From an uncultured virus (IMG/VR IMGVR_UViG_3300047557_000941) (taxonomy: Duplodnaviria; Heunggongvirae; Uroviricota; Caudoviricetes; Crassvirales): 20,000 bases of DNA. The notes below the pieces were generated by a model, which saw only the letters and a list, made by a program, of their open reading frames with translations, had not been told where the DNA came from and made no database searches. The position numbers were made by a program, and so were the translations under genes. Shown one piece after another: positions 8,138 to 13,029 of the stretch. The stretch's first letter is position 1; each line of letters begins with the position of its first letter. The stretch covers positions 45,152 to 65,151 of the IMG/VR virus record IMGVR_UViG_3300047557_000941. One strand, written 5' to 3'.

Positions 8138-9697
8138 ATGATAGTAAAAGAGATCGTCTTCGGAGATGAAGGCAGACAGAAATTAATTAAGGGTGTTAAT
8201 ACAATTGCAAATGCAGTTGGGTCTACACTAGGAGCTCGTGGTCGCACGGTGCTTATTGAGTCGGAGCAACACGTTGGTGGCATTACAGTAACCAAGGATG
8301 GTGTGACCGTCGCTAAGTCAATTAACTTAATGGATCCAGCTGAGAACTTGGCTGTGATGATCATGCGAGAAGCATCTGAGAAGACGGCTAACTCAGCAGG
8401 TGATGGGACGACGACGAGTATGGTGCTGGCACAAGCCATCATCCATTCGGCAATGGGTGTGCTTACACCAGAAGACAATACCACACAAGTATTGCGTGAT
8501 GTGCAGGCTGCAGCACTTAAGGTGGCTGAGGAGCTAACTGCTATGTCAACGGAGATTACATCAGATAAGTTGGTGGACGTGGCGACTATCTCGGCCAATG
8601 GCGATGCGGAGATTGGCAAGATCATTGCTGATGCGTACAATCAAGTTGGCTTAAGTGGTGTAGTGACAGTTGGAGCATCCGAGACATCGGACACATACGC
8701 TGAGGTGGTCAGTGGCATGAAGATAGACAGAGGGTTTGCGAGTAAGTACTTTGTGACAGACCATAAGAAGCAAGAGGCTGTGCTAGACAAGCCATACATC
8801 TTGGTGACTGACCAGCCCATTACAAACCTTAACGACATCTTGCCTATTCTAGAGTTCATCCACCAAGGCAGACATTCATTGCTTATTATTGGGGAGCTCG
8901 ATGAGAACTCACTAAACTCACTTAACGTGAACAAGATTAAGTTGGGTCTAAAAGTAAGCACTATTATTCCTCCGTCATTTGGCTACAAGCGTCATCAGAT
9001 CATGCAGGACATCGCTATTGCGACAGGGGCTAAGTATTTCTCTGAGCAGACAGGTGACAACTTAATGATGGTCACTATTGACGACTGCGGACAAGCAGGC
9101 AAGGTGGTGAGCTCACGGTTCAATACAATTATCTTCGATGCTGTTGGAGCAGGGGATGAGAGAGTGCAAGAGTTGCAAGAGCAGATAGAGGTGGAGATGC
9201 AGGCTGTCGAGAAAGAATTCTTAAAAGAACGCATCGCTAATCTAGGTGGTGGGGTGGCTATCATCAAGGTGGGTGCTAACTCAGACATTGAGCAGAAAGA
9301 GAAGAAGGACCGGGTGGACGATGCGGTGTGTGCAGTACGTGCAGCACTAGAAGAAGGCATCCTTCCAGGTGGTGGCGTGGCGTTAAAAGATATCGCTGCT
9401 ACTATGGACGTGGAGAACAAAGGCACCGAGATATTACAAATGGCGATGCTGGCTCCAATGATCAAGATACTATCCAATGCAGGCATAGATGTGGATGGTG
9501 CAGACTTTGATGAAGGTAAGCAGTTGTCTAAGGGAGGCATAGGGGTGAACGTAGCTACAGGGGCATACTGCCACATGATGAGCGTTGGGATCATTGACCC
9601 GACTAAAGTGTGCAAGGAGGCTCTAAAAAATGCTGTATCTGTTGCAGTAACACTATTATCTACAGAAACTGTCATAACAAATGTACGTCAAATGTAG
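8138..9697 (+). CDS. groEL: phage-encoded chaperonin GroEL (Cpn60)
   Basis: 519 aa with TKDGVTVAKSI, AGDGTTTS, VATISANGD, ERIANLGGGVAIIKVGA, EKKDRVDDA, EEGILPGGG and GIIDPTKV motifs; TAAATTTG -7 element at 8112-8119; no GGM tail. Confidence 0.97.
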   Translation: MIVKEIVFGDEGRQKLIKGVNTIANAVGSTLGARGRTVLIESEQHVGGITVTKDGVTVAKSINLMDPAENLAVMIMREASEKTANSAGDGTTTSMVLAQAIIHSAMGVLTPEDNTTQVLRDVQAAALKVAEELTAMSTEITSDKLVDVATISANGDAEIGKIIADAYNQVGLSGVVTVGASETSDTYAEVVSGMKIDRGFASKYFVTDHKKQEAVLDKPYILVTDQPITNLNDILPILEFIHQGRHSLLIIGELDENSLNSLNVNKIKLGLKVSTIIPPSFGYKRHQIMQDIAIATGAKYFSEQTGDNLMMVTIDDCGQAGKVVSSRFNTIIFDAVGAGDERVQELQEQIEVEMQAVEKEFLKERIANLGGGVAIIKVGANSDIEQKEKKDRVDDAVCAVRAALEEGILPGGGVALKDIAATMDVENKGTEILQMAMLAPMIKILSNAGIDVDGADFDEGKQLSKGGIGVNVATGAYCHMMSVGIIDPTKVCKEALKNAVSVAVTLLSTETVITNVRQM

Positions 9698-10659: not shown

Positions 10660-11250
10660 ATGACAAAGACATATTTAATTTATGGACTTAGGTGTCCAAA
10701 GACAGATGACTATAGGTATATAGGCAAAAGTTCAAGTGGTATTAATAGAGCTAAATCACACCTAACCTATTCGCACAATGAATCAGTAAATCACTGGGTT
10801 CTTGAATTAAGAGAAGAAGGATTGGCTCCTTTGGTTGATGTAATTGAACAATGCCAAGAAAGTGAATTAGTTATAAAAGAACATTTTTGGATTCAATATT
10901 ATCAAAGAGTTGGATGTATATTGTTTAACCATATTAAGTACAAAGGCAAAGCGATAGAAGGTCTTGAAAAAGAAGTTGATAAAGAAGAATCTAGACTTAA
11001 TGACAAAATTTCTTTAGTGAGGAATTTAATAAATGGAATGTCCTGTATAAGTGAATTTATTAAATATAGGCGAAAACAATTAAATATTTCACAACAAGAG
11101 TTGGCAGATTTAGCTAAAATATCAAGGGTTACAATACATAATATGGAAAACAAAGATAAAAATTCTACCATATCAAATATAGAAACAGTACTTGATATAT
11201 TGGGATGTGAATTGATGCCTTTAGTTAAAACGCCAAGAGGGAGCTATTAA
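10660..11250 (+). CDS. GIY-YIG-like nuclease fused to a C-terminal XRE/Cro HTH
   Basis: YLIYGL...YRYIGKS...R...H...E.FWI..Y......N (GIY-YIG); IKYRRKQLNISQQELADLAKISRVTIHNME (HTH_3). Confidence 0.8.
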   Translation: MTKTYLIYGLRCPKTDDYRYIGKSSSGINRAKSHLTYSHNESVNHWVLELREEGLAPLVDVIEQCQESELVIKEHFWIQYYQRVGCILFNHIKYKGKAIEGLEKEVDKEESRLNDKISLVRNLINGMSCISEFIKYRRKQLNISQQELADLAKISRVTIHNMENKDKNSTISNIETVLDILGCELMPLVKTPRGSY

Positions 11251-11525: not shown

Positions 11526-11783
11526 ATGAAAGTAATCGGAAAGAATATTCTAATCGTGCCTCAAGAAGAGGAGACAAAGTCCAAGGGCGGCTTAATTATG
11601 ACCGCAATGGATGCAAATGAGCTACGCTACAAGAAAGCAACCGTGGTATCACAAGGCTCGCTAGTAGATGGAATTAAGCCAGGCTCATTTATCTACTTTG
11701 ATCGTGCAGCTGGCCACACCATCCGCATCAATGAGGACCTATATACGGTCATCACAGAGAAAGATGTGGTAGTAGTTCTTTAA
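11526..11783 (+). CDS. groES: co-chaperonin GroES (Cpn10)
   Basis: 85 aa; MKVIGKNILIVP.EEETKSKGGLIM (mobile loop), ATVVSQG, IKPG..IYF, Y.VI.EKDVVVVL. Confidence 0.9.
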   Translation: MKVIGKNILIVPQEEETKSKGGLIMTAMDANELRYKKATVVSQGSLVDGIKPGSFIYFDRAAGHTIRINEDLYTVITEKDVVVVL

Positions 11784-11924: not shown

Positions 11925-12106
11925 AGTCAGGTGGCGGAAGGGTCGTATCAGGAGTTCCCGGCCGAAGGTAGACGCAAAAAGCCAACTCGTAGGGTAGTAT
12001 TAAACTATCATAGTGTGGAAGCGAGTCTAAATAAGACAATCCCTGGTTCGTGGCTCGCATTAGCGGCTGGCACCAAGGCTTACAGGTTCGAATCCTGTCC
12101 TGACTA
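11925..12106 (+). ncRNA. tRNA-like RNA 1 (182 nt; D-loop insertion, anticodon arm replaced by ~105 nt)
   Basis: Acceptor AGTCAGG/CCTGACT; D arm GCG-GAA[insert]GGTAGA-CGC; T arm ACAGG-TTCGAAT-CCTGT; no identifiable anticodon; no CCA. Confidence 0.7.
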
Positions 12107-12181
12107 AACTTACCTATCCGAAGGTTATGATGAAGCATTTTGTACCGTATGTTCATAAAGTAGATAGGAACGGTACTAATT

Positions 12182-12253
12182 AGTTAGGTGGGGTAATGGT
12201 AACCTAATTGGCTGAAACGCTCGAAGATACATGTTCGATTCATGTCCTAACTA
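12182..12253 (+). tRNA. tRNA-like RNA 2 / pseudo-tRNA (Phe-GAA-like loop, anticodon stem unpaired)
   Basis: 72 nt; acceptor AGTTAGG/CCTAACT, D arm GGGT-AATGGTA-ACCT, T arm ACATG-TTCGATT-CATGT; loop CTGAAAC at canonical spacing but flanks ATTGG/GCTCG do not pair. Confidence 0.55.
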
Positions 12254-12322
12254 CACTTTTAGTGATGTTGGTTACTATAGCATAGTAACTAAACTAATGA
12301 CTGATGGAAAGACATCAAATTT

Positions 12323-12443
12323 TAGCCTGTAGTGGAATTGGTATACACTATGTGAATTGGTTTGCATCCAATAGGTGTGTTAGCATAATAACAAACATAG
12401 TCGCTGTCACGGTGACTTGCGGGTTCGAATCCCGACTGGCTAC
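12323..12443 (+). ncRNA. tRNA-like RNA 3 (class II scaffold with branched anticodon arm)
   Basis: Acceptor TAGCCTG/CTGGCTA (one T-T mismatch); Leu-like D arm GTGGAATTGGTATACAC; stem TATGT/ACATA enclosing two hairpins; variable arm GTCGCTG/CGGTGAC; T arm CGGG-TTCGAAT-CCCG. Confidence 0.65.
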
Positions 12444-12522
12444 GGAGAGATAGCAATCTTCCAATATGGCATTCAGTCCGTTAATCTGGAGAACTTGCTT
12501 GACAGCTGGAAAGACAGCATTT

Positions 12523-13029
12523 TTAAAAATCTTTATTAAGTCTACCAATGACCCTGTCATATTGCCTTGTGGCAAAGTGATGGGGTTTATTGCTTTTAGG
12601 TTTGATGTCAGATAGCTTTGGAATGGGTCTTTCACCCTGCAACATCTCATAAACCTGTCGCATAATGGACTTAGCTTGGTAAGACAGCTCATAAATCGCA
12701 CGTTTGCCCGGTTCAGGCTTGCGAAAATGCACGATTAAACCTTTCTGCATCAAATCTTGCCGTCTATTTTTAGTAAATCCAAATATTTGGCAGTATTGGT
12801 CGAACTGATTGGCGTCAAAAACGTGCTCGGAGTACAAATAACATAGCATCTCAAAGTCTTCTAGGCTCAATCCGTGCTTATGACGAGCCCAGGCACGTAC
12901 AACTTTGATGTATTTTAGAAAGTCTTTGTCGACAGCCTCACGTCTAACTACGATAGGCTTGACTTTATATTCACGCACTTTAATAGCTCTAGGCTTAATC
13001 TTCCTAGGCTTCATGTATGTTTTTATCAT
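12523..13029 (-). CDS. hypothetical protein, possible winged-helix regulator
   Basis: 168 aa; LSLEDFEMLCYLY...LMQKGLIV...RAIYELS resembles MarR-like wHTH; TAATTTTG element on the minus strand at 13045-13052. Confidence 0.6.
   Translation of the reverse strand: MIKTYMKPRKIKPRAIKVREYKVKPIVVRREAVDKDFLKYIKVVRAWARHKHGLSLEDFEMLCYLYSEHVFDANQFDQYCQIFGFTKNRRQDLMQKGLIVHFRKPEPGKRAIYELSYQAKSIMRQVYEMLQGERPIPKLSDIKPKSNKPHHFATRQYDRVIGRLNKDF

Follow-up and report, generated by a model that had tools for sequence, protein, structure and literature searches.

Based on a comparative analysis of 20,000 nucleotides of DNA from a freshwater phage, hereafter the window, the final 20 kb of a virus record of 65,151 bases, we propose that the RNA encoded at 12323-12443 is a natural tRNA scaffold: a tRNA-like shell, matured by host enzymes, that carries a cargo at the anticodon position and probably serves in counter-defence as a protein-binding RNA. 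We put the probability of this reading at a little under one half (about 0.47). It is favoured because the loops and junction of the cargo are kept while the acceptor drifts, in two families, because pairing has been kept through seven two-sided changes, and because 71 families of non-canonical inserts sit in similar shells. It is weakened because only two lineages of the element are at hand, folding energies do not favour the junction and a rival hairpin is isoenergetic in the window. The element is real, and apparently uncatalogued among tRNA-derived phage RNAs. Its parts are as follows.

12323..12443, plus strand: tRNA shell RNA with forked insert; on a Leu-type body, a 41-nt two-hairpin insert replaces the anticodon arm
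12323..12329, plus strand: acceptor 5' strand; pairs with 12436-12442, with one U.U mismatch; one pair longer in the second lineage
12332..12348, plus strand: Leu-type D arm; 3 bp, G13.A22, A15, G18G19
12349..12353, plus strand: 5' strand of P1, at the anticodon-stem position; pairs with 12395-12399; one U-A to C-G change
12356..12372, plus strand: P2 hairpin; 5 bp, loop 12361-67 UUUGCAU (U33, UGC, A37)
12373..12377, plus strand: junction J2/3; 5 nt, invariant in all five sequences
12378..12393, plus strand: P3 hairpin; 5 bp, 6-nt loop GCAUAA at 12383-88
12400..12416, plus strand: long variable arm; 7 bp, 3-nt loop, 100% paired, three one-sided changes
12419..12435, plus strand: T arm; 4 bp plus G49.A65, canonical T loop, one compensatory change

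The initial annotation had described the closing stem (12349-53/12395-99), both hairpins, a Leu-type D-loop and a long variable arm, and all of its coordinates were confirmed. The 5-bp stem and 7-nt loop with U33, UGC (12363-65) and A37 are exact in the window sequence, and the second hairpin is present as described, with 5 bp and a 6-nt loop GCAUAA that contains CAT; the three leading letters of this loop, GCA, are complementary to the UGC of P2. In standard numbering P1 corresponds to 26-30/40-44. The pairing probability of the variable arm is ~1, and positions 8-25 are identical between the two lineages (19/19). The acceptor stem is followed by C73 in the window lineage and by A73 in L018 and L024; CCA is not encoded in the element. 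Of the class II tRNA-Leu traits, a 7-bp acceptor, G18G19, A15-U48, the T loop and the long variable arm are there. The view of the element as a chimera that does not decode and that has a Leu-type body also held, the same D arm being found in canonical tRNA-Leu: three of eight matches with the same D arm, a similar T arm and normal spacing are canonical tRNA-Leu genes, and none contains the acceptor or variable arm of the element. A canonical tRNA-Leu was itself ruled out, as there is no single 5-bp plus 7-nt anticodon arm with a Leu anticodon. An allo-tRNA, which would have a long, tetraloop-capped D stem, was likewise ruled out by the 3-bp D stem with its 11-nt loop; an 8 + bulge + 4 acceptor branch is a possible drawing of the second lineage and not of the window sequence. 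A tmRNA was ruled out by G3-C70 (not G3.U70), the presence of a D stem and the 41-nt insert, and neither ARAGORN nor Rfam makes a tmRNA call on the element. The RNA almost certainly does not decode. With default settings ARAGORN calls only 12182-12254 within the array to which the element belongs and misses 12323-12443. Rfam has no match to the element at E up to 1 (purine riboswitch and introns included), and a homologue scores 28.7 bits, under the cut-off of 29. As standard tRNA scans miss or mislabel such genes, a widespread class of phage RNA may hide in existing annotations.

Ten records carry the element, namely six viral records and four metagenome contigs, and one of the viral records is identical to the window over the element and perhaps comes from the same phage. 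The ten reduce to five distinct sequences in two lineages. Pattern scans for homologues gave true matches in 3/13, 6/74, 6/18 and 4/6 cases. No third lineage was found: model R1, run on 100 viral records, returned only three known carriers (127-149 bits, next best 42.5), and further patterns recovered known carriers in 6/6 and 6/15 matches, the remainder being unrelated. A BLAST search of isolated phages gave 42 records with matches of only 22-44 nt, mostly tRNA arms. On the five-sequence alignment 96.8% of cells are paired in the shell and fork structure, against 29-47% in slid controls. Seven pairs are changed on both sides (two in the acceptor, one in P1, two in P3, one in the T stem and one between the loops), a number reached by 44 of 500 shuffles, in a structure drawn from the same five sequences that scored it; with only two lineages, each compensatory change amounts to one event. 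Identity between the lineages is 9/16 in the acceptor versus 16/18 in the cargo loops and junction. No antisense target is evident in the phage's own genome, where the longest match is 12 nt and shuffles give 10-13; a suspected likeness of the insert's start to Bacteroidota CRISPR repeats was dropped, since the homologues differ there.

These changes bear on the idea that the element is a decaying pseudo-tRNA that acquired an insertion and spreads neutrally by recombination. Its U.U and G.A mismatches, C73, an acceptor one pair short and a fold z of -1.09 would suit decay, as would the patchy presence of the element and the broken P3 in L125. Against this, of the 21 columns substituted between the lineages 14 lie in the seven compensated pairs and four more retain their pair as a wobble, and the same plan is repeated with dozens of inserts. 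We regard decay as improbable.

Folding energies are less telling. At z -1.09 the full-length RNA is no more stable than its shuffles, and the closing stem is missing from the minimum-energy fold, which does contain both hairpins. P1 is weak by energy, with 12395-12399 as its sole partner giving a long helix; with the shell enforced it forms with a probability of 0.38 for the window sequence and of 0.16-0.19 for the second lineage, in which P2 and P3 attain 0.8-0.9. A long irregular hairpin lies within 0.2 kcal/mol of the fork in the window and dominates in L152 (0.73) and L125 (0.97); the single change of the latter locus breaks a P3 pair and strengthens this competitor. As a shared fold the long hairpin was rejected, as none of its 13 pairs is compensated and the second lineage breaks three of the 13. 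RNAalifold predicted neither P1 nor P2, and the other pairs that it selected show no two-sided changes. The fork is the only fold common to both lineages, and the window lineage may be a two-state RNA that alternates between fork and long hairpin. We consider the three-way junction likely to be real, the support coming from comparison and not from energies.

What does the fork present? The annotation made from the letters alone had expected homologues to conserve the 7-nt loop of P2 as an Ala(UGC)-like anticodon stem-loop. The letters of the heptamer are kept in five of five sequences, with one change; the geometry is found in two of the five only. In the other three the P2 stem is 4 bp long or shifted. 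Its fifth pair is A.G in the commonest close variant, held by five of the ten carrier records and seen also in contigs of RNA-library runs X1, X6 and X7, and in the second lineage the stem is shifted by one, which leaves a 6-nt loop (4 or 8 nt by other closings). The single change of the heptamer in that lineage falls at the wobble position and converts UGC to CGC, both Ala, and the single change in its P3 loop converts GCA to GCG. In each lineage the triplets of the two loops are complementary to each other, in the register that positions 34-36 define. That the wobble change has a complementary counterpart in the P3 loop points to loop-loop pairing, and we rate as an even chance that the P2 and P3 loops join in an anticodon-codon-like kiss. 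With one random substitution per loop, a covarying 3-bp match arises in 2-3% of cases in any register and in 0.3% at positions 34-36, figures to be read with the knowledge that the kiss was noticed post hoc. Among the 21 substituted columns, helices of 3-4 bp often arise by chance around those that covary, and column 42 can pair over 3 bp, the length of the kiss, with another partner as well. A U-turn loop presents exactly the three anticodon-position bases for pairing, and for this reason the kiss, if real, would explain the 5+7 geometry. Given that the loops stay complementary, it would also occupy the triplet and not display it.

The same observations bear on the proposal that the fork displays anticodon mimics as decoys. 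An anticodon-loop decoy for a nuclease or modification enzyme acting on tRNA-Ala would account for the exact 5+7 geometry of the window, found with U33 and purine 37 in 0.7% of insert shuffles (any 5-bp hairpin, 16%), and for a heptamer kept with a wobble-only change between two Ala triplets. It is at odds with the lost stem register (4 bp or shifted in three of the five sequences), with the lasting complementarity of the triplet to the P3 loop, and with the absence of enrichment among the 71 shell inserts, where anticodon-like hairpins number 2 versus 1.3 expected at 5 bp and 5 versus 3.8 at 4 bp. The CAT loop of P3, offered as a second mimic, has 6 nt, reads CGU in the second lineage and never takes anticodon geometry. 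The display of decoys is not supported, the 7-nt loop on which its refutation turned being conserved only in part, and we have strong doubts about a tRNA-Ala decoy in particular. Another idea builds on the kiss itself: an intramolecular mimic of an Ala anticodon on an Ala codon, borne by a tRNA body, within a shuffled library of RNA effectors in Bacteroidota phages. Such a mimic could fill a site on the ribosome or engage a defence protein by which decoded tRNA is read. We hold it to be unlikely; no case of a tRNA body that carries a codon-anticodon mimic was found in the literature searched.

The element belongs to a larger class. Shell mining drew 214 loci from synteny, the GAC-hairpin repeat described below, D-arm, fork and shell patterns and model matches (L031-L122 excluded), and these gave 117 elements in 99 families. 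After three had been re-called as canonical and one short parse dropped, 71 families lacked a canonical anticodon arm; a few of these are probably still misparsed tRNAs or anticodon-loop inserts. Among the 71 shells A15-U48 occurs in 60, A73 in 58, C74 in 64 and an encoded CCA in 5, and 12 have D-loop inserts. One acceptor sequence is common to 34 of the 71 (21/57 without the loci fetched by that sequence). The inserts measure 17 to 122 nt and have no common sequence. Helices that close the insert where the anticodon stem would be show no enrichment at 5 bp (14/47 versus 12.1 expected) and a weak one at 6 bp (8 versus 4.1), and the median fold z of the class is -0.83. For inserts and spacers in 34 loci Rfam gives only tRNA and sub-threshold unrelated matches. 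A second shell family was seen at L028:589-709 (-), L163:1075-1193 (-), L155 and L181:1226-1347 (+). Its cargo consists of crossing helices, a double pseudoknot, of which two helices are compensated; 9 of 30 pairs are changed on both sides and all cells are paired. Here the acceptor is identical at 2/14 positions yet fully paired, and the cargo is identical at 54/70. It seems from these alignments that the acceptor sequence, and so charging identity, is free to drift, and that shape and cargo are kept.

Is the cargo then the working part, or the shell? The insert might be a tolerated passenger and the shell what matters, either as punctuation that releases spacer RNAs or as a decoy for enzymes of the acceptor, T arm or CCA end. 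Conservation is highest in the D and T arms, the inserts vary from 17 to 122 nt and share no sequence, and a GAC-hairpin trailer stands 3' of 20/71 shells as opposed to 3/27 canonical tRNAs. A precedent is the tail-cutting nuclease Cas12a3, which according to a passage of PMC12851939 binds the T arm, acceptor stem and CCA, the loops not being needed. On the other side, cargo loops outlast the acceptor in two families and cargo helices covary, which a passenger need not do. We think it rather unlikely that the shell alone is the working part; this explanation and that of a scaffold with cargo are compatible and can both hold.

The array in which the element lies occupies a variable slot behind groES. 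The window encodes GroEL, GroES, HNH nucleases, an endolysin and a tail fibre, and a crassvirus-type muzzle domain is encoded elsewhere in the 65-kb phage record. An HNH nuclease gene and two further ORFs lie between the phage groEL (8138-9697) and groES (11526-11783) genes. The interval from the end of groES (11783) to the gene of a 168-aa protein on the opposite strand holds a short ORF-like stretch as well as ~600 non-coding bases, in which there are three T arms.

8138-9697, in the window: groEL
11526..11783, plus strand: groES, upstream landmark of the array
11925..12105, plus strand: second shell of the array; D-loop hairpin insert, and a 106-nt insert that replaces the anticodon and variable arms
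12108..12180, plus strand: spacer RNA; common to L010 and L018, where it lies 3' of other shells
12182..12254, plus strand: third, short shell, without canonical anticodon arm; labelled Phe-aaa by ARAGORN, Rfam tRNA 43 bits
12256..12318, plus strand: spacer hairpin RNA; ends with the GAC + GAAAGA-loop hairpin repeat, fold z -3.63
12444..12519, plus strand: trailer RNA; ends with the GAC + GAAAGA-loop hairpin repeat (12501-12518)
12523..13029, minus strand: 168-aa phage protein, function not assigned; downstream landmark of the array

The GAC + GAAAGA-loop repeat (window 12301-12317 and 12501-12518) recurs at at least 119 viral loci, where it terminates many spacer RNAs and stands before many shells; it has no Rfam match. 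L152 and L124 too have the spacer hairpin RNA of 12256..12318 upstream of the element, and the trailer at 12444..12519 is substituted by other trailers in other carriers. In L018 and L024, of the second lineage, the trailer RNA begins with a lone T-arm-like hairpin directly 3' of the element. Neighbouring cassettes vary in order and kind among the carriers, and in 17 syntenic relatives the element cassette is present in one, a shell motif in nine and neither in eight. The simplest cause would be reshuffling of cassettes by recombination at shared shell ends and repeats. The D-loop hairpin insert at 11937-11958, in the shell lying first in the array, has related forms in shells with other cargo (L152, L208, L009) and in a collapsed shell of L010; as this insert recurs beside other cargo, D-loop inserts and cargo may be exchanged separately. 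The proteins encoded at window 10660-11250 and L268:915-1436 are homologous (30% identity) with a C-terminal HTH_3 domain, and each gene lies within 1 kb of a shell array. Their N-terminal part has a GIY-YIG-like look (no Pfam match), and they are possible candidates for a homing nuclease. An ORF of L015 just downstream of a shell behind groES resembles, in our estimation, the Acb2/Vs.4 nucleotide-sponge family, hinting that the slot is a counter-defence hotspot. A promoter scan gave 7 matches versus 5.7 expected, and no terminator was found; Pfam scans of 56 ORFs and PHROGs scans of 15 gave neither an RNA ligase nor a CCA-adding enzyme. Of the 13 genome bins that contain the commonest shell end, five are labelled Bacteroidota (Sediminibacterium, Chitinophagaceae and others); the other eight are scattered over unrelated taxa and are probably misbinned viral contigs.

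Could the insert be an intron? A spliced tRNA, like those of Lak megaphages, would here become a working tRNA-Val(AAC). With a lowered threshold ARAGORN reports Val(aac) with a 34-nt intron (one of 119 mostly spurious calls), and tRNA introns are recorded in Prevotella phages in the part of 10.1101/356790 that treats them. Exhaustive excision, on the other hand, restores U33 and a purine at 37 in only two of the five sequences, both with purine 32 and a Leu-type body. There is no insert-free allele among 74 variable-arm or 8 D-arm/T-arm matches, and no RtcB or tRNA intron endonuclease in the phage genome. Contigs from three of four RNA-library runs span the element (X7 as far as 12436; X5 is without coverage) and hold no splice joint, a weak point, as contigs cannot show absence; the runs have shares <0.2, and assembled contigs show neither transcription, ends nor strand. 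Splicing to a functional tRNA is in our judgement very improbable. Two tRNA-Leu-like genes, L022:587-709 (-) and L029:592-710 (+), have a long hairpin within the anticodon loop. They could be better candidates for Lak-type introns, because excision, judged by eye, could restore Leu(UAA).

How would a scaffold with cargo operate? In the mechanism that we propose, the array is transcribed, and the acceptor, D, variable and T arms are kept so that host RNase P and 3' trimming would release a stable RNA; tRNA-like maturation of the element is quite likely. RNase P recognises the elbow, and phage C4 RNA is another of the RNAs that it processes (PMC11143913). The anticodon position would be used for cargo, here a three-way junction that would become a compact domain if its loops kiss. 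The cargo would bind a protein, most plausibly a host defence protein, which it would titrate. That it is a counter-defence ligand is a tentative assignment, less firm than the scaffold itself. Phages exchange such cassettes, probably via common shell ends and repeats. If shells are stabilising carriers, every insert may be an RNA that inhibits host defence or translation, a kind with few known members, and for unexplained phage tRNA 'introns' the shell class provides another interpretation, which can be tested.

The element has likenesses to several known systems. Pseudoknot I of the dicistrovirus IRES has an anticodon-like loop paired internally with a codon-like triplet, and the purine riboswitch is a three-way junction closed by loop-loop pairs; the element differs from both in its shorter helices, other junctions, tRNA body and lack of an Rfam match. 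With bacterial and phage tRNA-Leu it shares the D arm, A15-U48, G18G19, the long variable arm and the T loop, but it has no single 7-nt anticodon loop, has C73 in the window lineage and has mismatches in the acceptor and T stem. For LeuRS the anticodon arm is dispensable, and A73, the core and the variable arm are required (PMC2377443). Like allo-tRNAs, including the inactive five-stem-junction forms near toxin-antitoxin loci, the element is irregular and has a long variable arm, and some allo-tRNAs lie in polycistrons and are not used in translation, according to excerpts of PMC5389517 and PMC7609411; unlike the allo-tRNAs described there, which have a long D stem with tetraloop, an 8/4 or 9/3 branch and an anticodon, its D loop is of the ordinary Leu kind and its insert is forked. 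The Lak megaphage tRNAs with 'enigmatic introns' are closer: in the portion of 10.1101/356790 concerned with them, they are oversized tRNA-like genes with conserved inserts in Bacteroidota phages, and like the element they are not in Rfam or are left unclassified by standard scans. The Lak inserts have intron-free alleles and predicted anticodons (10.1101/356790, same portion), whereas for the element no insert-free allele was found and excision brings back no conserved anticodon. The pseudo-ToxI repeats of phage TE, in the account given in part of PMC5086642, are a phage-borne structured small RNA acting against host defence, which is the job proposed here, but the element has no sequence or Rfam link to them and no tandem repeats. 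A description of the shell class was not found in the literature searched, a scope that leaves most subscription journals outside; the term 'anticodon-less' in PMC13434031 concerns Schlafen cleavage products, and the four supplements searched of Fremin et al. 2023 (PMC10690425) contain no carrier identifier or motif. The nearest design is artificial. In the engineered tRNA scaffold of Ponchon and Dardel a foreign RNA replaces the anticodon stem-loop and the host processes the product, as outlined in a passage of PMC3753655. The element differs from it in being natural, with a class II body and a place in phage arrays, in that its processing would be a presumed one and in that many shell inserts have no clear closing helix. 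Like the engineered scaffold, it keeps the acceptor, D and T arms and has the anticodon stem-loop as its insertion site.
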